Origin: a virus
Taxonomy: Duplodnaviria > Caudoviricetes
Length of the DNA stretch: 64,000 nt
Virus record (IMG/VR): IMGVR_UViG_3300010429_002123
Direction: 5' to 3' (one strand)
Positions 4,367 through 46,336 of the stretch are shown one piece after another. The position numbers were made by a program, and so were the translations under genes. The notes below the pieces were generated by a model, which saw only the letters and a list, made by a program, of their open reading frames with translations, was not told the origin of the DNA and did no database searches. The first letter of the stretch is position 1; the number at the start of each line of letters is the position of its first letter.

Positions 4367-5389
4367 ATGGCTACAAATAGTATAAATAATAATGTAGAAG
4401 TCCCTAAATCTGATATTATACAAAAAGGCGATTTGTTAATAGGGACAGGTTCTGGAACTTATGTAAGAGTTCCTGTTAGAGAAGATGGATTCTTTCTTGT
4501 TTCTGATTCAAATGAAACTGCAGGAGTTAAGTGGCAAGTTAATCCTGAGCAGAGGGGGTATTTTTCTGTAGGTTACTCTACTACATCTATTAATACTGTA
4601 GATAAGTTTGTTCCAGAAGTGGTACAAACTATTTCTGCTACTATTTCTCTTACTCGAAGAAGAGTTGTAGGGGCTTCAATAATCTCTTCTGCATATGTAG
4701 CAGGGGGGTATGATTATAATAATCTAAACACTAATATTATAGATAAAATACATAATGAACTCTGTTCTGTAATAAGTGCGACATTGTCTTATTCCAGGTA
4801 TCAAGTTGCTGCGAGTTCTTTGGCACAGTATGCTTATTTCGCCGGTGGTTATAATGATACGACAAGAACTAATATTATTCAGAGATTAGATGGTTCAGAC
4901 TCTTTGTCTACTATATCGGCCACACTATCAGCTTCTAAATTCGGAGCTTTCGGTGCTACTATATCGAATTCCGCCTATTTTGCAGGAGGGGACACAGGCA
5001 CAAAAACTAACGTTATTGATAGGTTATCTATTTTAGAAGTAAGAACTACGCTTGGTGTTGTGCTGTCCGTCGCAAAAGGACAAGCTACAGGGGCTTCGTT
5101 TTCTAACACAGCTTATTTCGCTGCCGGGCATAATGGAACTTATCTTAATAGTATAGAGAAACTGTCCAACGCAGAAGCTAGAACCACACTCTCTGCAACT
5201 TTGTCAGCTTCAAAGGATACTCTGGCAAGTTGTTCTTTTGATAATAGTATTTATATTGCTGGTGGGAGTGTGTCAGGAACAAATACGAATGTAATTGAAA
5301 GACTGAATCCTTCTGAAACCGTTAATGTTATAACTGCTGTGCTTTCCTCGTCTAAAAACGCTCTTGCAGGAAGTACTGTGAAAGGATAG
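4367..5389 (+). CDS. Kelch-like beta-propeller protein 1 (putative receptor-binding)
   Basis: About 6 repeats of SAYFAGG...N.I.RL...T.SATLS (kelch-like GG) plus the shared N-terminal module. Confidence 0.7.
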   Translation: MATNSINNNVEVPKSDIIQKGDLLIGTGSGTYVRVPVREDGFFLVSDSNETAGVKWQVNPEQRGYFSVGYSTTSINTVDKFVPEVVQTISATISLTRRRVVGASIISSAYVAGGYDYNNLNTNIIDKIHNELCSVISATLSYSRYQVAASSLAQYAYFAGGYNDTTRTNIIQRLDGSDSLSTISATLSASKFGAFGATISNSAYFAGGDTGTKTNVIDRLSILEVRTTLGVVLSVAKGQATGASFSNTAYFAAGHNGTYLNSIEKLSNAEARTTLSATLSASKDTLASCSFDNSIYIAGGSVSGTNTNVIERLNPSETVNVITAVLSSSKNALAGSTVKG

Positions 5390-5398
5390 GAGAGTATT

Positions 5399-6430
5399 AT
5401 GGCAACTAATAATTTCGGAAATAATTGTGGAGTATATAAAACTACATATACAGCTAAAGGCGACTCAATAGTAGCCACTGCAAGTTCTGTATACACTAAA
5501 TTGGCTACGTCTAATAACGGTCAATATCTAACGTGTGACTCTTCAAAGACTGAAGGTATAGTATGGAAACCATCGCCCGCACAAAAGGTATATTATGCTG
5601 GTGGAAGCAGTGTAAGTGATTCTGACAGGAAAAACTCTATAGATAGGATGCTAAATGAGACAGTACAGACTTTGTCTGCTACTCTTTCTAATTCTTGTCA
5701 CAGGTTGTCTGGGGTATCTCTATCTACAAACTCTTATTTTGCTCTGGGTAGTATAGGAACAAAAACAAACATTATTGATAAATTGAATTCTTATGAAGAA
5801 GTTAGTACTCTTTCTGCCACTATATCTGTATCAAGGGATGCTGTTGCAGGAGCAACTATTTTAACTTCAGCGTATTTTGCTGGAGGGGAAGGAGCTTCTT
5901 CTGTTAAAGTAAACACTATAGACAGGCTTACAAGTGGTGAATCTTGTTCTGCAATTTCTGCTACCCTGTCTTCTTCAAGGAGAGCTTTAGCGGGTTCATA
6001 TTTAAATCAATCAGCATATTTTGCTGGGGGTGAGAATACAACCCCTATTAATGTAAATACTATAGATAGATTATCCTCTTCAGAAGTAAGGACTACTTTA
6101 GGTGCTGTTCTATCTACGACGGACAGATTTCTAGCAGGAGCTTCTTTCGGTAATTCAGCTTATTTTGCGGGAGGTATTGTAGCATCTGATATTAATACTA
6201 TTAATAGGCTAACTACTTCTGAAACCTGTGGAGCTATTTCAGCTACATTATCTACTTCGGCACAATCGACAGCAGGAGCGACATGTTCTGATAACCTGTA
6301 TTTTTCAGGCTCTATAGGCAGTAACTGGCAAAACATAGATAAGTTAGTAAGAGCAGAAACTATAAGCACTATATCTGCTTTGCTATCTGTATCAAAACGA
6401 TACCTGACTTCTACAGGTGTTTCGGGATAG
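5399..6430 (+). CDS. Kelch-like beta-propeller protein 2
   Basis: Same repeat architecture; GGAG RBS. Confidence 0.7.
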   Translation: MATNNFGNNCGVYKTTYTAKGDSIVATASSVYTKLATSNNGQYLTCDSSKTEGIVWKPSPAQKVYYAGGSSVSDSDRKNSIDRMLNETVQTLSATLSNSCHRLSGVSLSTNSYFALGSIGTKTNIIDKLNSYEEVSTLSATISVSRDAVAGATILTSAYFAGGEGASSVKVNTIDRLTSGESCSAISATLSSSRRALAGSYLNQSAYFAGGENTTPINVNTIDRLSSSEVRTTLGAVLSTTDRFLAGASFGNSAYFAGGIVASDINTINRLTTSETCGAISATLSTSAQSTAGATCSDNLYFSGSIGSNWQNIDKLVRAETISTISALLSVSKRYLTSTGVSG

Positions 6431-6440
6431 GAAATTAACA

Positions 6441-7457
6441 ATGGCCACGAACAATTTTACGAATAACTCGGAAATGCTAAAAACAGACCTGGTTCAAAAA
6501 GGTGACGTATTCGTAGGGACAGGAAGTGGTAGTTACCAAAGATTGCAGGTAGGTGAAACAGGTAGTGTTCTCGTTACGGATTCATCTACTTCTACGGGAG
6601 TTAAGTGGGAATCTTTATCTAAAATGTATTTTGCAGGTGGGTGGGATAACTCAAGTAGCACTTCTGTAATAAATGAGTTCGTAAACGAGACTATAAGCAC
6701 CCTGAGTACTTCTTTGTCTTCGTCAAGACATCATTTGCAGGGAGCACCGATACAGAACAAATCTTACTTTGCTGGTGGATATACTACCGCTAATGTTAGA
6801 ACTATTGATAGAATTGTTAATAGCGTGGCGGGAGTCATATCGACGTCTCTTTCCGTAAGCAGGGGTTATGGAGGAAGTGCCTATATTTCTGTGTCAGCTT
6901 ACTTTGCTGGTGGTCAGACTGTTTTAACTTTAAACTCCATAGAACGCTTAACAAGCGGAGAAATATCCTCTGCGATAACAGCAACATTGCCTGCTAGAAG
7001 AAGAGAGTTAGCAGGAGTCCATTTATTAGGGACTGCATATTTTGGTGGTGGATATTTTTCTGGTGGAGGTGTCAGAGTAAATAATATAGAAAAACTCTCT
7101 TCTGCAGAGACAAGAACTACTTTGTCTGCCACATTGTCCTCGTCAAGAGATGCCCTTAGTAGTGCTGGAATATCTTCTTCTGCTTATTTTGCTGGAGGTA
7201 GCACTGGTTCTGTAGTGAATACTATAGACAGGTTAAGTAGCTCTGAAGTTCGAACCACGATTTCTGCTACTCTTTCAGCTTCAAAATATGGTTCTGCAGG
7301 AGCTTCTATTTCGGATTCTTCATATTTTGCCGGAGGGTACACAAGCACAAGTATAAATGCTATAGACAAATTGGTATCGGAGAGTCTCTCGACTATAAGT
7401 GCAACTATATCATCTGTAAGAAGGAATTTTGTTGGGGTGAGTATTAATTTGCTATAG
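6441..7457 (+). CDS. Kelch-like beta-propeller protein 3
   Basis: Start moved to ATG 6441 (MATNNF, matching paralogs); SAYFAGG repeats. Confidence 0.7.
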   Translation: MATNNFTNNSEMLKTDLVQKGDVFVGTGSGSYQRLQVGETGSVLVTDSSTSTGVKWESLSKMYFAGGWDNSSSTSVINEFVNETISTLSTSLSSSRHHLQGAPIQNKSYFAGGYTTANVRTIDRIVNSVAGVISTSLSVSRGYGGSAYISVSAYFAGGQTVLTLNSIERLTSGEISSAITATLPARRRELAGVHLLGTAYFGGGYFSGGGVRVNNIEKLSSAETRTTLSATLSSSRDALSSAGISSSAYFAGGSTGSVVNTIDRLSSSEVRTTISATLSASKYGSAGASISDSSYFAGGYTSTSINAIDKLVSESLSTISATISSVRRNFVGVSINLL

Positions 7458-7508
7458 AGATATGCTATAATTATTATGCTCTTTTAGAGAGATTAAGAGG
7501 TTTTAAGA

Positions 7509-8540
7509 ATGGCTACGAACAATTTTACAAATAATTCTGAGGTATTTAAAACAGACCTGATTCAGAAGGGAGATATTTTCGTAGGGACAGGCAATGGAAC
7601 ATATCAAAGACTACCTATTTATGAGGATAATTTTGTAATAGAAGCGGATTCATCTAAATCAACTGGTGTAGTTTGGGCGTTCCCTCCAGGTAATAAGATA
7701 TATTATGTTGGAGGTAAGGTTACAGCACCTGTTAATACTGTGAATGTTCTAAGAAGAGATGAGTCTTGTTTCTCTCTAAGCCAAACTTTGTCTTCTTCCA
7801 GAGATAATATGGGGGCAGCAGTCATAACTAGTTCTGCTTATTTTGCTGGTGGTTTTACGGCTTCTGCTGTTGTATCTACCATAGATAAACTTGATAGTGG
7901 AGTAATGATGGGTGTTTCCGCAGTACTGCCAACAGCTAGGGGTAAGTTGGCTGGTTCTTCCATTAGTGTGTCGGCTTATTTTGCAGGGGGATGTAATTTT
8001 ACTAATAATGTATTCTACAATACTATATCAAGGTTAACTAACGATACTACGTGTGCTAATATAGCAGCCACTTTGTCGGCTTCTAAAGCGTATATAGCTT
8101 CTGCCACTATACTGTATTCTGCTTACTTTGCTGGAGGTCAGTTAAATGGAGGTTCTGCAGTAAGAACAATAGATAAACTTACTAATGCGGAGGCTTATGC
8201 AGCTGTTTCGGCTACATTGTCTATATCTAAATTTGTAGTTGCGGGGGCGGTAATAGGTAATTCTGCTTATTTTGCAGGAGGTTGGACAGGTTCAGCACAC
8301 ACCAACGTTATTGAGCGTTTTACTAGTTCCGAGTCTATATCTAATATATCCGCTACTCTATCTGTCTCGAAAAATGGTCTTGCTGGGTCTTCAGTCATAT
8401 CAAACATATACTTTGCTGGGGGAGATAATGGCGGTTACTCCAACGTAATAGAGAGACTTAAAAGTAATGAATCATGCGGGACTATATCTGCTACTTTATC
8501 ATCCACTAGGTGCTATATGTCTGGGGTAACTTCAAGTTAA
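7509..8540 (+). CDS. Kelch-like beta-propeller protein 4
   Basis: Same architecture as proteins 1-3. Confidence 0.7.
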   Translation: MATNNFTNNSEVFKTDLIQKGDIFVGTGNGTYQRLPIYEDNFVIEADSSKSTGVVWAFPPGNKIYYVGGKVTAPVNTVNVLRRDESCFSLSQTLSSSRDNMGAAVITSSAYFAGGFTASAVVSTIDKLDSGVMMGVSAVLPTARGKLAGSSISVSAYFAGGCNFTNNVFYNTISRLTNDTTCANIAATLSASKAYIASATILYSAYFAGGQLNGGSAVRTIDKLTNAEAYAAVSATLSISKFVVAGAVIGNSAYFAGGWTGSAHTNVIERFTSSESISNISATLSVSKNGLAGSSVISNIYFAGGDNGGYSNVIERLKSNESCGTISATLSSTRCYMSGVTSS

Positions 8541-34860: not shown

Positions 34861-35247
34861 ATTATTAGCAAAAGTAAGTTTAAAAATCCTGTGTTATAGA
34901 GAGTAAAAAGTCCTTCGAAAAGCCTTATACAGCAATCGTATTCACTCTAAATACAAATAAGTTCCAAAATACTGAACCGCAATAGTCCCGTTTTCGGAAA
35001 AAATGTCCTAAACAGTAAAATCGGTATTATTCGTAAAATCGGAAAAGCTCTTCTTGAGTAAGCATAGGCGATACCATACACAGTGTTCGCACTGTGTTTC
35101 CTGTGCCGATGAAAATCGGCGGCGTACCCATCTCGCTCTCGCTCGAACACGTTAGTGTGAGAGGGGGTAGGGGGAGAGCGAGAGAGTTACTCTCATCTTG
35201 TTAAGGGTTTCTGGTTAAATTGCTCTTGTTACATGATTCTAGTTCAT

Positions 35248-35358
35248 CTACTCCACAAGTAGAACCCTTTCTACTCCACAAGTAGAACCCTTTCTACTCC
35301 ACAAGTAGAACCCTTTCTACTCCACAAGTAGAACCCTTTCTACTCCACAAGTAGAACC
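35248..35358. repeat. 23-bp perfect tandem repeat x4.8 (putative replication-origin iterons)
   Basis: CTACTCCACAAGTAGAACCCTTT starting at 35248, 35271, 35294, 35317 and (partial) 35340, in a ~660-bp intergenic region upstream of HTH genes. Confidence 0.85.
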
Positions 35359-35416
35359 TCCTATTTATGCGGATTGCAGAGAAAAATGAAAATATAAAAA
35401 TTTAGTAGTGTGGCTA

Positions 35417-40405: not shown

Positions 40406-40834
40406 ATGAACGTAAGAGAAAGATTAGCCGAACTCTGTCACGAGCAGTGGAGCGGGTGGATGGAGTATTTGTTTAGTAAATGCGTGGAAAACAAAAAGAC
40501 CACGGAAATTGCTGGAAACACCTACGATTACACCTCTCTGACCATTCCAAGCTGGGCAGTAGAACGGTGGGGAAGACAGATGAAAACCCCCTATAAAGAC
40601 CTATCGGAGGAAGAAAAAGAATCAGACAGAAAAGAAGCAGATAAAATCCTGGCTCTCGGGAAAGAAATCTTTGACGAGGATTTAAAGACTCTTGTCATGG
40701 GGACGCTCCTCGAAACCCTAAAAGAGGAGTTCCCCGAAGACTTCCTTGATGACGGGGAAGAACCCTTCTGCATAGAGGAACTCCTTATGCCGGAAATAAG
40801 TGACCTTTTAGGTGAAGAAAAACCCAAAGAATAA
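40406..40834 (+). CDS. RyR-domain-like phage protein
   Basis: LAE.CHEQW...PYKDLSEEEKESDR. Confidence 0.6.
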   Translation: MNVRERLAELCHEQWSGWMEYLFSKCVENKKTTEIAGNTYDYTSLTIPSWAVERWGRQMKTPYKDLSEEEKESDRKEADKILALGKEIFDEDLKTLVMGTLLETLKEEFPEDFLDDGEEPFCIEELLMPEISDLLGEEKPKE

Positions 40835-40881
40835 GGGGTAAAGACCTTTAATTCTTTAGGCACGTGTGCTATAATTTAAAG

Positions 40882-41045
40882 AACATTGATAAAAATAAAA
40901 TAAGTGATAAATCCAGTCACTGACTCGAAGTTAAGTCTTTCTTAAGACTTTTTGAGTCAAAGGCTTAGAAAACTTTCAGTTTAGAGAGAGTGAGTAATTA
41001 AGCCAATCTAGCGGAGTTTCTAGAGAAACATGATTAGTTGGAAAG
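40882..41045 (+). ncRNA. Structured guide-RNA scaffold copy 1 (omegaRNA/tracr-fused-like)
   Basis: Downstream of TGcTATAAT (40867-40875); homologous to five other copies with compensatory changes; ends in the 30-nt repeat. Confidence 0.8.
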
Positions 41046-41169
41046 TACACGCCTTTCTAAGGAAACATATTTAGATGGAAAGGATAGAGAGTTTCCTTTG
41101 AAGAAAAGTTTCTAAAGGAACATGATTAGATGGAAAGTTTTAAAGGAGTAATTATAGTTAGGTGGAAAG
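41016..41169 (+). CRISPR. Mini-array 1 (3 repeats + degenerate 4th)
   Basis: Repeats at 41016-41045, ~41054-41082 and 41108-41137, degenerate to 41169; spacers ~8 and 25 nt. Confidence 0.7.
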
Positions 41170-41201
41170 ATAAGAAAAGGTAGGAAAAGAGGAAACAATT
41201 T

Positions 41202-41864
41202 TTGAAAGAAAGAATAAAACTTGTTCCCTGTGGGGTAGGGACGATTATTACTCTCCCACAGGAGTTAGAATCTTATTTTTTGGACTCTGCAAGGGAAGTG
41301 CGGAAAAAAGGCAAAATAAAAATTAAATTCGAGTTAACACCCCAGGCCAAAATCTTAGACATATATAACCTGCTTTATTACTACAGGTCTAAGAAGCAAC
41401 CCCTGCTTTACACTTTAACCCTTTTTGATGAGCTGTTTCTTCTGAAAATAGAAGAATGCGAGTATGGTTTTGTGTTGAGGGGGTCACCCGTAACTCTCAT
41501 TGTCCGTGGGTTACTGGGAAGAGCAGAGACATTTGATGAGAAGGAGTGTGTTATGGAAAACTTTAGAGAGTTTTTACCTAAAGACCTGACTATTCAGGAA
41601 GTAGTCAGAGAATTTCAAGGAAGATGTAACGCTGTAAGTTTCAAACTGAATAGAGAGATTCCAGGTACCATCTCTGTATTGGAAGAAAGATTTTCTGTAG
41701 AAAAAGGCTTTGGTTTAAAAAGAACTTTCTTCACGGGCAGTAATGGGGACGCTCCCCCCAAGAAAAAACCTCTTTATACGATTTCTGTCACCGTTCGGGA
41801 ACTCGCTGGAGCAGAAGGGGTTCCGATTCCTGAGATTTGCATAGAGGGACTGTCTGCCGGTTAA
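41202..41864 (+). CDS. Hypothetical protein between scaffold copies 1 and 2
   Basis: 220-aa ORF, TTG start. Confidence 0.5.
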   Translation: MKERIKLVPCGVGTIITLPQELESYFLDSAREVRKKGKIKIKFELTPQAKILDIYNLLYYYRSKKQPLLYTLTLFDELFLLKIEECEYGFVLRGSPVTLIVRGLLGRAETFDEKECVMENFREFLPKDLTIQEVVREFQGRCNAVSFKLNREIPGTISVLEERFSVEKGFGLKRTFFTGSNGDAPPKKKPLYTISVTVRELAGAEGVPIPEICIEGLSAG

Positions 41865-41904
41865 AGAAAGTTTCACAGACCGTTAAAAAGTTTTAAAAAT
41901 TGGC

Positions 41905-41933
41905 TTGACAATCTTTACTATTCGTAGTATGAT
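41905..41933 (+). promoter_or_regulatory. Promoter for scaffold copy 2 and nuclease gene
   Basis: TTGACA-17-TATGAT. Confidence 0.75.
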
Positions 41934-41940
41934 TATTTAA

Positions 41941-42106
41941 AGAACACCAACGAAAACAAAAATAACCGATAAGTCCAGTCGGTGACTCGAAGTTAAGTCT
42001 TTCTTAAGACTTTTTGAGTCAAAGGCTTGCAAAGTTCTCGGTTTATAGAGAACGAGTAATCAAGCCAATCTAACGGGTTTCTAAAGAAACATGGTTAGAT
42101 GGAAAG
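41941..42106 (+). ncRNA. Structured guide-RNA scaffold copy 2
   Basis: Stems ACCGA/TCGGT, GACTC/GAGTC, AAGTCTT/AAGACTT, GGCTTG/CAAGCC, GTTCTC/GAGAAC, CTAAC/GTTAG. Confidence 0.8.
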
Positions 42107-42144
42107 ATTTCATAATTTCTTTAGAAACGTGGTTAGTTGGAAAG
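42077..42144 (+). CRISPR. Mini-array 2 (2 repeats)
   Basis: Repeats at 42077-42106 and 42115-42144; 8-nt spacer. Confidence 0.7.
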
Positions 42145-42254
42145 AATGAGGGTTTGTTGGAGTTTTCGGAGAAAAGACTTTAAAACCCGGTTTTTCGGAA
42201 AGATGGGAAAAGTTTTAAGGTTCAAAAGTGAAAGAATTAATAGGAGGGAACGAC

Positions 42255-44552
42255 ATGATAGTTAGAAAAAGGAGAAAACTGAAGGACACTACGGAGGCGA
42301 AAGCTAAGAGGTCAGCCTCTGCCAAAAGGGCGAAAAGATATTCGGGACCGAAGTTCGCCTTTACTTTACCGCTTAAGGCTTGCAAATGGGAGAAAGACAT
42401 GGTATTTAAAAAGATAAACGGATACAGGCAAATGTATAATCACACTACTTTTGTAATATCTAAGTTATATCACGCCATGTGCCTCTCTTTACTGGAAGAC
42501 CAGGGTACTACCATTACAGACTCTGTCTTAAAAAGTATGAAAGGGCAGTTTGACAAGGCAAAAAGAGACTGTATAGAGAAGTATAAAGGACAGACCTACA
42601 CAAAACAGGAGTTCGCTTCTCTGCTCGAGTCCGAAGGGTTTAATGCGAAAGAAATAGAAAAAGCCATTCTCTGTTTTGCAAAAGAGAAGTTCAAAGAGAA
42701 AAAACTTGAACTAATAAAAGCTCAGAAAAACTTAAATAAGAAAAGTGCCATTTCCAACAAAATGAGTAATAAAACTGGGGGGAGCATCCTGGAAAAAACC
42801 GAGGAAGAAGAAGAGTATGAAGAGTTTTTAGAAAGCCTCGAAGAAGATGAAGACCCCACTACAGACTCTGACCCCGACTTAAAAGAGGCTCTTTCTGAGC
42901 CCGACGTCTGGGTAACCACAGACAAAGTCTACACAGGGGCGGAGAAGAAAACAGCTAAAGAGAACGCCCGGAAGGCAAGGGAGGAGCTCCAGAGAATAAA
43001 AGATGATTATGTCACTTTTCTTAAGTCGCACGGTCTTCCCACAGGTAATAAAAATAGCATAAACACAACACCCCCGGCAGAATTCAGAATTAAACACCCC
43101 CATTTGTATTATAATCTGCCTGGAAATGTTGTAGACACCATACTGGCCAGGGTGGAGTGTGCTCAGAAAAAGGTCTTTTACCAGGATGGTATGAACTTTA
43201 ATTATTACAGAAAAGACTTACGTAAGTCTTACCCCGCCAGAAAAGGTTCAGACCTTGCCATAGAACGGGACGCAAAAAATCCTCAGAAGTTTGTGCTCAG
43301 TGTGAGATTCGGGCACCATATTTCAAAAGAAAGAGAAAAACAGGGAGAAAAACAGGAAGAGTTTTTGAAACTTCCAATCGTAGCAGTAACCCCCTACGAC
43401 TTTGAGGTGCTGAACAGGTTGGAAACAGGTGTTTTTCAAGAGCACAGAATTCTGCGTAAGCAGGTGGGAAAAGAACTGAAGCTGTTTGTGCAGGTGGTTG
43501 TAAACGGAGAACCGCCTAAAAAACCCCAAAAGCTCGGAAAAGGCGTTGTAGGCATAGATATAGGAACACAAACGACAGGCTTTCATAGTGACACGGTAAC
43601 AAGATTAGTGGAACTGGCAGACACTCTTTACCCACAGGAAAAAGAATTCGTCTTCATAAAAAGAGCCCTCGACAGGTCGAGAAGAATGACCAACGTGACT
43701 AACTATAAGCCGGATAAAGAAGGAAGAAAAGGAAGAGGAGACGTAGCTGACAGAAAAGACAGAAAAGGGTGGATAAAGTCGAGATATTACAGGGAACTGC
43801 AGAGACTCCTGAGAAGTAATGAGCGTAAAAGAGCGAGAAAAAGAGAGCTTGCTCACTTCCTTTTAGCAAAAGAAATTGTGGCTCTCGGAGATACCTTTGT
43901 AATAGAAAAAGTCAACTGGAAGGGACTTCAAAGACGGGCAAAAAAGACAGAAAAGAACTCCAAAGGGAAGTTTAAAAAGAAAAAAAGGTTCGGTAAGAGT
44001 CTGGGAGAAAAAGCCCCGGCAAGTTTCGAGCAAATCCTTAAGAGAAAAGTTGAACAGGCCGGAGGAAAGTTCATCTACGTAAACACTCAGGCATATAGAG
44101 CCTCCCAGTATAATCATGTGACAGATACTTACACAAAAAGAGACCTGAGTACCCGCTGGGTTAACATAGGAGGCCACGTCGTTCAAAGAGATATGTATTC
44201 AGCCTTTTTGTTAAAAAACTTCAAAAACGAAGTGTCTCCTGACAGGAAAAAGTGTGAAGAAGACTTTGATGACTTTCTCACACGTCACAATGCGGAAGTT
44301 ACGCGTCTGAACCAGCTTAAACTAACAAAGGTCTTAAAAAGCTCGATGGGCATGAACCACATACCTTCTGCTATGGAGCTTGAATTAGCCAGGTTAGAAG
44401 GGTCTGTGGAAGAAGAAGTCCTTGACCGGATAGAAAGCTCTCTGGCCAGAGCAGAAGAGACTTACGGAGAAGAAATCCCGGAAGAAGTCCTCGAAGAGAT
44501 TTTTAACCCAAAACTCTCTATAGAAGAAATCTCCGGGATAGCCGCAGACTGA
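42255..44552 (+). CDS. tnpB: Large TnpB/Cas12-like RNA-guided RuvC nuclease (~765 aa)
   Basis: RuvC-I VVGIDIG, RuvC-II FVIEKVNWKGL, RuvC-III QRDMYSAF; RALDRSRR, KKRFGKSL..KAP and ASQYNH motifs of a TnpB clade; GGAGG RBS before ATG 42255 (track start is GTG 42228). Confidence 0.85.
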   Translation: MIVRKRRKLKDTTEAKAKRSASAKRAKRYSGPKFAFTLPLKACKWEKDMVFKKINGYRQMYNHTTFVISKLYHAMCLSLLEDQGTTITDSVLKSMKGQFDKAKRDCIEKYKGQTYTKQEFASLLESEGFNAKEIEKAILCFAKEKFKEKKLELIKAQKNLNKKSAISNKMSNKTGGSILEKTEEEEEYEEFLESLEEDEDPTTDSDPDLKEALSEPDVWVTTDKVYTGAEKKTAKENARKAREELQRIKDDYVTFLKSHGLPTGNKNSINTTPPAEFRIKHPHLYYNLPGNVVDTILARVECAQKKVFYQDGMNFNYYRKDLRKSYPARKGSDLAIERDAKNPQKFVLSVRFGHHISKEREKQGEKQEEFLKLPIVAVTPYDFEVLNRLETGVFQEHRILRKQVGKELKLFVQVVVNGEPPKKPQKLGKGVVGIDIGTQTTGFHSDTVTRLVELADTLYPQEKEFVFIKRALDRSRRMTNVTNYKPDKEGRKGRGDVADRKDRKGWIKSRYYRELQRLLRSNERKRARKRELAHFLLAKEIVALGDTFVIEKVNWKGLQRRAKKTEKNSKGKFKKKKRFGKSLGEKAPASFEQILKRKVEQAGGKFIYVNTQAYRASQYNHVTDTYTKRDLSTRWVNIGGHVVQRDMYSAFLLKNFKNEVSPDRKKCEEDFDDFLTRHNAEVTRLNQLKLTKVLKSSMGMNHIPSAMELELARLEGSVEEEVLDRIESSLARAEETYGEEIPEEVLEEIFNPKLSIEEISGIAAD

Positions 44553-44562
44553 TTACCAGTAA

Positions 44563-44596
44563 CCCGTGACTGAGTTGCCAAGACCAAAGTCACGGG
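44563..44596 (+). other. Hairpin immediately downstream of the nuclease gene
   Basis: CCCGTGACT...AGTCACGGG. Confidence 0.5.
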
Positions 44597-44614
44597 ACTT
44601 ACTCTGGTTAAAAT

Positions 44615-44775
44615 GTAGACAAAAGATTAAAATAAGTGACAAATCCAGTCACTACCTTGAAGCTAAGTCTTAGAAAAGACTTTTTAAGGTAAGGCTTGGA
44701 AAGTTCTCGGTTTATAGAGAATGGGTAATCAAGCCAAACTAACAGGGTTCTAAGGAATTACGGTTAGATGGAAAG
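44615..44775 (+). ncRNA. Structured guide-RNA scaffold copy 3
   Basis: AGTGAC-AAATCCA-GTCACT; TACCTT/AAGGTA; ends GGTTCTAAGGAATTACGGTTAGATGGAAAG. Confidence 0.8.
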
Positions 44776-44827
44776 CTCTAATCCTTCTCTTGAAAGTGTT
44801 TCTAAAGAAACATGGTTAGATGGAAAG
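44746..44827 (+). CRISPR. Mini-array 3 (2 repeats)
   Basis: Repeats at 44746-44775 and 44798-44827; 22-nt spacer CTCTAATCCTTCTCTTGAAAGT. Confidence 0.7.
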
Positions 44828-44871
44828 ATGATAGATTTTAATGTAGAGAGTAGAAGTGAGGTGGAGTAAGA

Positions 44872-45321
44872 GTGGGAGAATCTAGTGAGAACTTTGGAAA
44901 TATGGTAAAACTATACAGGCTCGCTGAAGACGTGATGGAAAAAGCTGAGAAAAAACATGAAGAGATAAAAGAGAAAAGAAAAGCGAAAAGAGCTTTAAGA
45001 GGCGTGCAGAAAAAAGCGGAACCCAAAAAAACTTATAAAGACCTTTTAGAAACCTTTAATCAGATGGTTAAAGATAAGTTTCAGATTATTCCCCCTCTCT
45101 GCGGGAAAGACGCCAAGTTTTCTAAAGAGCTCATAGACCACTTCGGTTACGAGTTAACTGAAAGGGTTTTTTTATGGACTCTTAAAGAATGGAAAACCAT
45201 ACAGAGAAAGTTCAGGATAGAGGGTCTTCCCACAGTGGGAATTATTTACGGATTTAATAACTATTTGTTTTCTGAGGTACAGAAGCAGGAAAAACTCTCA
45301 GAAACAGAGAATGAATTTTAA
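44872..45321 (+). CDS. Hypothetical protein (replication module context)
   Basis: GAGGTGGAG RBS; lies upstream of loader and helicase. Confidence 0.5.
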   Translation: MGESSENFGNMVKLYRLAEDVMEKAEKKHEEIKEKRKAKRALRGVQKKAEPKKTYKDLLETFNQMVKDKFQIIPPLCGKDAKFSKELIDHFGYELTERVFLWTLKEWKTIQRKFRIEGLPTVGIIYGFNNYLFSEVQKQEKLSETENEF

Positions 45322-45344
45322 TAAAAAGAAAGCAGGAAAAGGAG

Positions 45345-45650
45345 GTGATTACAGTGGAAATAATGCTGAATAAGATGACAGACCAGGAAAAGACAGAGTT
45401 TTACAAAGAGAAAATTCTAGCCTGGGGCAAAAAGCACGGAGGAGTTTTCTCTATCCCCTACTGCTTGCGAAAGAAAGAAGACAGCGAGCTACACGAGACA
45501 TGGGTAACTTTTTTGACAGAAAACGCCCCCCGGATTGTAAAGACAAGACAGATGGAATTTACTCCGAGAGCCCTGAAAGAACTTCAAAAAACAAACAAAA
45601 TAAAAAAACTTCCGAGTTCAACAAGCTTTAGAAAGTATGCCCTTGTATAA
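45345..45650 (+). CDS. Hypothetical protein
   Basis: ORF in operon. Confidence 0.45.
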   Translation: MITVEIMLNKMTDQEKTEFYKEKILAWGKKHGGVFSIPYCLRKKEDSELHETWVTFLTENAPRIVKTRQMEFTPRALKELQKTNKIKKLPSSTSFRKYALV

Positions 45651-45676
45651 CCGGGGAAAATAACCAGAGAGGAGGC

Positions 45677-46336
45677 GTGGAGATACAAATAAAAAGTGGA
45701 AAAATTAAAATTCAAAGTAAAGACTTTCTGGTCAGAGCCAGAATTCCTGAGAGGTTCTGGAAAGTGAAACTGAACCTTATTCCAGAGTCCCCATATAAAG
45801 ATACTCTTAACAACTATATAGAAAACTTCGAGGACTTCTACACACGAGGTGTAGGTCTTTTTATATACTCGAAAGACAATTCCTGTGGAAAGACTTCTGC
45901 AGGGGTTATTCTGTTAAAAGCGGGTATAAGTAAGGGTTTAACCTGTCTTTTTGCTGGCTCTGATGAAGTCATGGACAGTAAAGTGAGAAAAATAAGATTT
46001 GACGAAGACGAAGACCTTATTTCTCGCATGCACAGAGTGAATATACTTCTTATTGACGACATCGACAAAGAATACAGAGGAACCAGCGGTTTTTCTGAAA
46101 ATCAACTCGAGGCTCTTATACGAAAAAGGTCACAACAGCTAAAAGTGACCATCGTAACCAGTAACAGAACACCTGCAGAAATAAAAGAAATCTACAGTTC
46201 TGCCCTTTCAGAACTTATGAAAGAGTGTATGTACCCACTCAAGATTCCGGGACAGAGTGAGGGAGGAAAAAACTGGAGAGCAGAAGAGGCTCGTTTTTTA
46301 GCAGAAAAACTTCGAGTTCCCCCTAAAGACTACTGA
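45677..46336 (+). CDS. DnaC/IstB-like AAA+ helicase loader
   Basis: IPERF, GLFIY..NSCGKT (Walker A), ILLIDD (Walker B), TIVTSN. Confidence 0.8.
   Translation: MEIQIKSGKIKIQSKDFLVRARIPERFWKVKLNLIPESPYKDTLNNYIENFEDFYTRGVGLFIYSKDNSCGKTSAGVILLKAGISKGLTCLFAGSDEVMDSKVRKIRFDEDEDLISRMHRVNILLIDDIDKEYRGTSGFSENQLEALIRKRSQQLKVTIVTSNRTPAEIKEIYSSALSELMKECMYPLKIPGQSEGGKNWRAEEARFLAEKLRVPPKDY

Follow-up and report, generated by a model that had tools for sequence, protein, structure and literature searches.

The subject of this report is a gene for a TnpB-derived nuclease, together with a set of dispersed, putative guide RNA cassettes, in the genome of a large phage. They were studied in a stretch of 64,000 nucleotides (nt) from the IMG/VR virus record IMGVR_UViG_3300010429_002123 (Duplodnaviria; Caudoviricetes), called the window below; coordinates refer to it unless another record is named. 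The nuclease gene occupies positions 42255..44552 on the + strand and encodes a RuvC protein of 765 amino acids (aa), P0002, supported by its open reading frame (ORF), its ribosome-binding site (RBS) and profile and fold matches. The reading frame could start at GTG 42228 or at ATG 42255 and ends at 44552. The sequence AGGAGG is located 8 nt 5′ of the ATG and gene callers on two other assemblies also yield 765 aa, in agreement with the coordinates and the length of about 765 aa that an earlier note on this DNA had proposed. The structural model and the alignments described below use P0001, the 774-aa product read from GTG 42228, so that a P0001 residue number equals the real number plus 9.

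The virus contig that contains the window is 183,650 bp long (IMG/VR) and 78% complete by CheckV. The 765-aa protein is present in identical form on three independent assemblies, among them an ENA contig of 216,837 bp and one from Logan, and therefore the nuclease gene is no assembly artefact. A contig of 233,925 bp is listed in the cluster record of the protein, and the phage that hosts the gene is large, about 217–234 kb. Its genes are small, densely packed and nearly all on the same strand, and the neighbours of the nuclease gene are replication genes, including those of a DnaC-like loader and a DnaB-type helicase. The nuclease gene is single-copy in the phage genome. No TnpA gene was found among its neighbours and no left or right insertion sequence (IS) ends were found at the gene itself, the repeats that flank it being two of the 13 cassettes distributed genome-wide. 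The possibility that these direct repeats of ~170 nt were IS ends was considered and rejected, because the same element occurs 13–14 times across the contig, always with arrays. A sigma-70-like promoter (TTGACA, 17 nt, TATGAT; 11/12) is located at 41905..41933 on the + strand, upstream of one cassette and of the nuclease gene, and both may be carried on a single transcript starting from it.

Fold, clade and enlargement of the nuclease

No Pfam family matches the 765-aa protein. The NCBIfam model guided_TnpB (NF040570) reaches 53.8 bits (1.9e-14), under its 100-bit cutoff, and the PHROG family phrog_506, annotated 'transposase', matches at 4.9e-27. An AlphaFold2 (AF2) model of P0001, built with 118 homologs, has a mean predicted local distance difference test score (pLDDT) of 78.6 and a predicted template modelling score of 0.71. 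Its best Foldseek match is ISFba1 TnpB (E 3.9e-12, template modelling score 0.69 by target), followed by AsCas12f, Cas12p, Cas12m and LaTranC. Structural superposition with VIA-align placed residues 4–385 of ISFba1 TnpB onto residues 40–672 of the model (Z 15.2, root mean square deviation 3.4 Å, 364 residues), and residues 2–377 of ISDra2 TnpB within the same residues 40–672 (Z 14.6). The whole of both TnpB proteins thus maps inside this region, so that P0001 is an entire TnpB core (WED-REC-RuvC-TNB, with a split RuvC) to which insertions and two terminal extensions have been added. A search of PDB sequences with the 765-aa protein gave no match, neither to a solved Cas12 nor to LaTranC.

All three catalytic residues are present. 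The RuvC-I aspartate lies in GIDIG (D435 in the real numbering, D444 in P0001; 43557..43559, + strand), the RuvC-II glutamate in IEK (E551, E560 in P0001; 43905..43907, + strand) and the RuvC-III aspartate in QRD (D646, D655 in P0001; 44190..44192, + strand). Conservation was read from a family alignment of 119 sequences, namely P0001 and 118 relatives. Both aspartates occupy invariant columns and the glutamate a column that is at least 90% conserved (invariant among 12 sequences). All 18 of the family-invariant positions are retained in P0001, including the catalytic pair D444 and D655. The fold search and the conserved columns bear out the description in the earlier note of a TnpB-clade RuvC effector with an intact D-E-D triad composed of the three motifs named above, and the predicted fold is that of a RuvC protein.

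Searches among 5.8 billion protein clusters gave a single full-length match, which was the 765-aa protein itself, and no full-length ortholog was found in IMG/VR either. The other 200 matches are TnpB-type proteins of 447–560 aa (median 495 aa), with 37–48% identity over the C-terminal 36–61% of the query. Those with a name are 'ISCbt1' IS200/IS605 OrfB proteins of Clostridium, Clostridioides and Geobacillus phages and TnpB proteins of Fusobacterium and Bacillales. The relatives that were examined reside in ordinary IS elements, with a Y1 TnpA gene just upstream, a left-end hairpin and a right end. Phage c-st, for example, carries three identical 2,213-bp IS copies with sharp borders, which start with TTAC and end with a hairpin followed by AGTGTCAG. 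In the phage studied here P0001 is the sole protein of the ISCbt1 clade, and its gene is that of a clade member out of its transposon: it has no TnpA, no ends and a single copy.

One feature that the earlier note had singled out, the replacement of the usual CxxC zinc ribbon by ASQYNHVTD, turned out to be of wider distribution. The motif is present at P0001 625–633 (44100..44126, + strand), where a canonical TNB domain would have its first CxxC, and the segment contains no cysteine. Residues A625, S626, Q627 and H630 are invariant in the 119-sequence alignment. Within the TNB-equivalent segment 94 of the 118 relatives likewise have no cysteine and the remaining 24 have one, so that a CxxC pair is not found in any member. 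The Pfam model of the canonical domain (PF07282) scores 17.1 bits on this segment, against a cutoff of 26.3. Judged from these alignments, loss of the zinc ribbon characterises the ISCbt1-type clade as a whole, and the replacement is real without being a peculiarity of this protein. The same phage also encodes half of a canonical TnpB outside the window, P0122 (207 aa; G000:C1:158583-159206, − strand; locus L101:1453-2076:-), which comprises a RuvC domain with an intact triad (GIDLG / AIEH / LDRD) and a canonical CxxC...CxxC TNB, has no WED/REC lobe and is preceded by a 158-aa protein with a double zinc ribbon. P0122 and the 765-aa protein are remote kin (hhalign E 0.0023). In a profile alignment of the two, the CxxC pairs of P0122 fall on ASQYNH and NIGGH, with ASQYNHVTD opposite CSRCG.

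What sets the protein apart is its size, along with its genomic context. The 765-aa protein is ~270 aa larger than the members of its own clade, and the term 'oversized', which the earlier note had applied against TnpB in general, holds even against the clade median of 495 aa. The alignment with IS-encoded homologs that it had suggested shows the closest ones to sit in ordinary IS elements but to be ~270 aa smaller. In total, 264 of the 774 P0001 residues fall in columns filled by fewer than 10% of the relatives. Most of the added mass is in the N-terminal helical (REC) region, with smaller pieces in WED and at both termini, consistent with the expansion of the recognition lobe that the earlier note had put forward. 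The enlarged helical REC lobe spans P0001 53–318 (42384..43181, + strand) and contains ~145 lineage-specific residues, a 54-residue helix and an acidic tip. Helices are predicted in the AF2 model at 53–92, 98–119, 140–193 and 237–267, and the tip corresponds to the acidic EEEEEYEEF...DSDPD at P0001 192–217 (nt 42801–42878), which comes after a Lys-rich tract; both tracts had been described from the letters. Lineage-specific residues number 18 in WED and eight in the RuvC linker. At the N-terminus, a basic extension (real residues about 1–31; 42255..42347, + strand) has 12 Lys and Arg in 25 residues, is absent from the clade and is modelled with low pLDDT. At the C-terminus, the acidic tail likewise noted before is 60 aa long (44370..44549, + strand), with 19 Asp and Glu against four Lys and Arg; it is also absent from the clade and contains a predicted helix at 714–746 (pLDDT 73–92). 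An exhaustive HMMER search with residues 1–330 against 1.84 billion representatives found nothing beyond the protein itself, and look-alikes of the N-terminal lobe in a protein atlas gave weak leads at most, to small Bacillota proteins and HTH_OrfB_IS605.

Putative guide cassettes and their kinship with the clade omegaRNA

The contig contains 13 intact cassettes over a span of more than 130 kb, six of them within the window and two flanking the nuclease gene. All are intergenic and on the gene strand, and the start codon of the next gene follows the last cassette repeat by 20–70 nt. Each is composed, in this order, of a conserved A/T-rich lead-in of ~30 nt, a scaffold of ~110 nt and one to five repeats of 30 nt (GTTTCTAAAGAAACATGGTTAGATGGAAAG) with unique spacers between them. 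About 17 spacers are 33–39 nt long and mutually unrelated; the others are short or irregular, with lengths of 0, 7, 8, 9, 14, 22 and 25 nt. In the window, where all six are on the + strand, cassette 1 (40904..41137) has a scaffold and three repeats (41016, 41053, 41108). Cassette 2 (41966..42144), directly upstream of the nuclease gene, has a scaffold and two repeats (42077, 42115), and cassette 3 (44636..44827), 84 nt past the nuclease stop, also has two (44746, 44798). This last location is the position of the omegaRNA in the IS relatives. Between the gene and cassette 3, directly 3′ of the stop codon, there is also a GC-rich hairpin of 9 bp (CCCGTGACT...AGTCACGGG; 44563–44596) with no T-run. 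Further downstream are cassettes 4 (49778..50022) and 5 (50633..50868), each consisting of a scaffold and three repeats, and cassette 6 (54459..54675), with a scaffold and two repeats. A 14th copy is incomplete (L009:5231-5348, − strand, equivalent to G000:C1:164881-164998; 68.7 bits). It retains stems P1–P3, has neither P4 nor a repeat, lies between two tRNA genes and may be a decayed cassette or a scaffold-only RNA.

The scaffold and the first repeat can be folded together into four stems with 43 base pairs, in which 98.4% of the alignment cells are paired as against 90.1% in shuffled alignments. Two-sided changes were found in 16 of these pairs, a number reached by none of 500 shuffles, and partner columns that were slid out of register pair in only 33–51% of cases. 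No Rfam family matched in the interval 40800–45800.

The origin of this structure was approached with two covariance models. The first (R1) was constructed from the phage scaffolds and run unfiltered over 37 ISCbt1-type tnpB loci. It gave full-length matches on the same strand in 19 of the 37 loci, starting about −30 to +100 nt from the tnpB stop, the region of the omegaRNA; at most ~0.05 would be expected by chance per locus. In the closest relatives the matches stop exactly at the boundary of the right end, with its hairpin and AGTGTCAG. The reciprocal model (R2) was built from 30 independently aligned transposon omegaRNAs alone. When run on the phage, its top seven matches and ten of all 18 are cassettes, with strand and register both correct, and the highest score goes to cassette 6 (54446–54601; 26.3 bits, E 0.0012). 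Common to both RNAs are a P1 of 5 bp with a loop of 7–8 nt, a bipartite P2 with a GTTAA internal loop, an outer P3 stem of the form AAAGnCTTA...TAAGnC, in which a compensatory change from G:C to U:A separates the phage and transposon sets, and a terminal hairpin (P4) CnAACG...CGTTnG followed by an 8-nt tail. Comparison of the scaffolds with IS flanks by sequence only (blastn-short, nhmmer) found nothing significant. The case for homology is made by position, strand, register and rank because the single E-values are weak. The conclusion drawn from these comparisons is that the scaffold plus first repeat derives from the omegaRNA of the ISCbt1 clade, and that the repeat corresponds to the 3′ hairpin and tail of that RNA.

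Tandem duplication of the right-end hairpin was searched for among 84 IS-borne relatives and none was found. The left-end hairpin of the IS (CCAACTCC-TTTA-GGGGTTGG followed by ATGGATAG) also scores with R1, at L017:1486-1515 and at the same position in L020, L030, L037 and L048, and its tail is closer to the tail of the phage repeat, ATGGAAAG, than the right-end tail AGTGTCAG is.

Spacers, possible roles and genomic surroundings

DNA matches of the spacers in the phage's own genome do not exceed those expected by chance, and self-targeting regulation of the TldR type was rejected for this reason. Searches for protospacers in GenBank phages returned noise only (E ≥ 0.2), and exact 20-mers of two spacers had no match in IMG/VR. 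One spacer was more informative. Spacer g141538_s1 (TATGTGGAGACC...CTTAAC), from a five-repeat cassette outside the window, is an open frame with GC-rich wobble positions that encodes YVETVHYIDRLN. A wobble-degenerate version of it had no match in IMG/VR and matched two metagenome contigs in frame, where about 0.002 matches would be expected by chance. The ORF that it matches encodes a 177-aa Rad52/22 single-stranded DNA-annealing protein (Pfam 3e-14), and its contig has serine recombinase genes too. The phage has its own homolog of this Rad52/22-type protein, 56% identical, located at about 65300–65830 in window numbering, some 1.5 kb past the window's end (G000:C1:53887-54237, L105). The phage protein reads YVETVNYIDRLN where the spacer encodes YVETVHYIDRLN. 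The two peptides agree at 11 of 12 residues, whereas at the DNA level only 25 of 36 positions are identical, with mismatches from position 6. This discrepancy argues that the source of g141538_s1 was a diverged foreign allele of a recombinase gene also carried by the phage. Apart from the Rad52 spacer, six-frame translations of the spacers gave no non-trivial match to the proteome of the phage. As a single case, the Rad52 spacer fits the targeting of competing phages or prophages with the phage itself spared.

Taken together, the data favour, with a probability of about 70%, a domesticated phage nuclease of TranC or type V-like character with dispersed guide cassettes, probably directed against competing phages. 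The cassettes, transcribed in the direction of the genes, would supply the guides. Each would be a derivative of the omegaRNA, with stems P1–P4 and the 8-nt tail, whose last 30 nt became a CRISPR-like repeat and to which up to four further repeat units with spacers of ~36 nt were added. Scaffold, first repeat and first spacer would then constitute a natural single guide, and the downstream repeat-spacer units could be released and paired with a scaffold in trans, in the manner of trans-activating CRISPR RNA (tracrRNA). The loaded nuclease would cut matching DNA of competing phages or prophages that is flanked by a target-adjacent motif (TAM), and neither the arrays of the phage nor the diverged alleles that it carries itself would be cut. 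The proposal of the earlier note that the protein reflects a transition from TnpB to Cas12 is strengthened by cassettes with mini-arrays and an omegaRNA-derived scaffold that match the clade of the protein.

Several observations weigh against this interpretation. The E-values that connect scaffold and omegaRNA are weak singly (0.0012 to about 8), and structured non-coding DNA may draw weak matches from covariance models. Pairing between the scaffold and the downstream repeats is limited to about 5–7 bp, which makes use of the scaffold in trans uncertain. Of the about 17 regular spacers just one could be linked with a family of target genes, and this through its encoded peptide only; neither an exact protospacer nor a TAM was found. 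Many spacers are short (0–25 nt) and all cassettes lie right next to a gene start, an arrangement that also fits a cis-regulatory role. No orthologous system was found elsewhere in the 5.8 billion clusters, IMG/VR, genomes or metagenome contigs, and the contig is 78% complete.

The cis-regulatory role is the alternative that survives best, and it is nevertheless unlikely. According to it, the cassettes are 5′-leader elements through which the TnpB-derived protein, or another RNA-binding factor, controls processing, stability or translation of the downstream mRNA by binding or cleaving the motifs of scaffold and repeat, the spacers being mostly filler with no foreign DNA target. The strictly intergenic placement on the gene strand at a short distance from a start codon is what such leaders would have. 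Cassette 2 has a strong promoter on one side and the nuclease gene on the other, many spacers are too short or irregular and no exact targets were found. In addition, TnpB is able to generate omegaRNA by processing the transcript that encodes it (PMC10278001). This explanation does not account for about 17 mutually unrelated spacers of CRISPR-like length, nor for one that is clearly a piece of a Rad52 allele from elsewhere, with codon usage foreign to the phage. The protein has also kept its RuvC triad and every family-invariant residue, which would be needless for mere RNA binding.

Somewhat less probable again is an active nuclease that serves as a device for homing or marker exclusion. The terminal guide would then be the adjacent phage DNA, like the guide of a transposon's omegaRNA, cassette-free alleles of co-infecting relatives would be cut, and the cassettes with their neighbours would spread by recombinational repair. 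The cassettes are indeed dispersed and gene-adjacent, and each continues from its last repeat into the phage DNA next to it. There are precedents in the spread of IS605 by TnpB-dependent non-restorative homing and in the free-standing homing endonucleases of T4-like phages, which mediate marker exclusion (PMC13565253). Contrary to this, a search of the 5′ boundaries of the cassettes for a conserved motif resembling a TAM, for instance the TTAC of ISCbt1 left ends, found none, and the internal, array-like spacers would be left unexplained.

The least probable of the three alternatives takes the gene to be a stranded, drifted IS remnant with junk insertions, and the cassettes to serve another effector, such as P0122 or a host Cas protein. 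The insertions are of low complexity and have no homologs, the genome does encode a second TnpB-type protein (P0122, with RuvC and a zinc-ribbon TNB), and the repeat, with its GTTTC...GAAAG, looks like one of the Cas6 type. The scaffold, however, is homologous to omegaRNA of the ISCbt1 clade specifically, of which P0001 is the only member in the genome, and P0122 is remote from that clade and has none of the guide-holding WED/REC lobes. Neither the 185,579 species genomes searched nor the metagenome collection contained a host array with this repeat. The ORF itself is intact over 765 codons, with all invariant residues, a strong RBS and two flanking cassettes. The view of the cassettes as mimics of host CRISPR (mini-arrays or decoys for host Cas6-type systems) was rejected, since the repeat is absent from the 185,579 species genomes (with one isolated chance match), from JGI metagenome contigs and from IMG/VR, the cassette 'leader' is an omegaRNA homolog and the phage contig has no Cas1.

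Beyond a domesticated nuclease with dispersed guides, a more far-reaching and tentative interpretation can be considered, one that is for now doubtful. The system could be a living intermediate of the birth of type V CRISPR inside a virus, with an unsplit omegaRNA and a nascent array in one transcript. Copied to at least 13 promoters across the phage genome, this unit would form a dispersed 'regulon' of guides, by which a single enlarged and zinc-free TnpB would be armed against rival phages at various stages of infection, and new repeat-spacer units would be gained without Cas1–Cas2, for example by recombination or through the nuclease's own cuts. No Cas1 was found in the 183.6-kb contig (78% complete). 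The origin of Cas12 from TnpB is an active question, and the current model involves splitting of the guide RNA into tracrRNA and CRISPR RNA (crRNA) and growth of the protein. At this locus the change in the RNA and the growth of the protein are seen together, with the scaffold still joined to the first repeat, the repeat recognisable as the 3′ hairpin of omegaRNA, and ~264 residues gained while 37–48% identity to mobile relatives remains over the C-terminal half. Such a stage has no counterpart in the published TranC accounts consulted (PMC13565253, bioRxiv 10.64898/2026.03.27.714800). Both protein and RNA can be aligned between the IS copies and the derived system, so each step is testable by exchange of components. 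A further suggestion from the system is that phages with no adaptation genes can operate guides from many loci, and a zinc-free TnpB scaffold with natural single guides is a possible chassis for editing.

Other features of the window were recorded alongside. The DnaB-type helicase gene (46713–49193) encodes 826 aa, of which only residues 1–348, and not the C-terminal ~480, match helicase families. An iteron-like unit of 23 bp (TCTACTCCACAAGTAGAACCCTT) is repeated in five to six tandem copies in an intergenic gap at 35224–35361. A promoter-like motif, TTTTTACAAAAAG(G/T)(C/A)TTGACA(A/T), has eight conserved copies (21293, 28683, 30389, 36789, 37393, 40303, 49191 and 62780), which probably represent one temporal class of sigma-70-type phage promoters. 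Four neighbouring paralogous genes of 340–346 aa at 4367–8540 have internal repeat blocks in common (repeat families D4, D7 and D9).

Comparison with known systems

Cas12f and Cas12n (type V-F and relatives) are miniature, tracrRNA-dependent effectors with a long structured guide scaffold. The phage protein has the same fold and domain order (AsCas12f, Foldseek E 6e-12, Z 13.2–13.6), whereas sequence identity is only 12–15%. Cas12f has zinc-finger TNB/REC elements, forms a dimer, measures 400–550 aa and is associated with a canonical array, usually with cas1/cas2/cas4. Cas-phi (Cas12j) and Cas-lambda (Cas12l) are found in huge phages, have 700–800 aa and are presumed to act in conflicts between phages. 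They resemble the phage system in structure (Z 10.5–10.8), in the single RuvC, in small arrays and in the absence of adaptation genes. In contrast to it, they are far from IS-borne TnpB in sequence and use short crRNAs with no omegaRNA-like scaffold, from one array per locus. As to type V systems in general, the phage has the trait of a RuvC effector combined with repeat-spacer arrays, at 13 loci, two of which flank the gene; tiny dispersed arrays are atypical. Its effector branches among IS-borne TnpB proteins, as all 200 detectable relatives are of TnpB type and no solved Cas12 matches in sequence. A different kind of domestication is represented by TldR (PMC10705468), which shares with the phage nuclease an existence outside a transposon and separately encoded guide RNAs. 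TldR, however, has lost its RuvC catalytic residues and targets host promoters, while the triad is intact here and the spacers have no match in their own genome.

The closest known proteins are the ISCbt1-type TnpBs, such as Clostridium phage c-st CST008, Geobacillus virus E3 gp155 and the 'ISCbt1' transposase of phiCD211/AR1086-1. They belong to the same clade, with 37–48% identity over the WED-RuvC-TNB half, and have in common with the phage protein the D-E-D triad, the zinc-free ASQ..H and a homologous guide scaffold architecture. They differ in being 447–560 aa long, with a Y1 TnpA neighbour, end hairpins, often several copies, and one omegaRNA with one guide. The phage system, on the other hand, has a single-copy gene for 765 aa, no TnpA or IS ends, and at least 13 dispersed cassettes of scaffold and array.

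In organisation, the phage system resembles TranC. TranC systems are described as TnpB-like effectors that use CRISPR arrays after the omegaRNA was split into tracrRNA and crRNA, and they have arisen many times independently (Jin et al., Cell 2025, via PMC13565253, bioRxiv 10.64898/2026.03.27.714800). Examples given there are LaTranC (PDB 9jfq) and the phage-borne CauTranC9, some clades have an expanded REC/WED and a long C-terminal domain, and some are viral. The described TranC systems have one array adjacent to the effector, with 3–20 repeats of 32–38 bp and a separate tracrRNA; they have no associated cas accessory genes, and many phage-borne and TranC systems also have no adaptation module (PMC13565253, bioRxiv 10.64898/2026.03.27.714800). 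The likeness lies in an effector close to IS-borne TnpB, in repeats derived from omegaRNA and in the structural match to LaTranC (Z 12.5). The differences are that here the scaffold is still fused in cis to repeat 1, an array consists of one to five repeats of 30 nt, at least 13 loci are spread over more than 130 kb, and the effector is of a zinc-free clade, with orphan insertions and no sequence match to LaTranC. In function, the phage nuclease and its cassettes probably constitute a TranC-like or type V-like phage CRISPR system that dispenses with an adaptation module.

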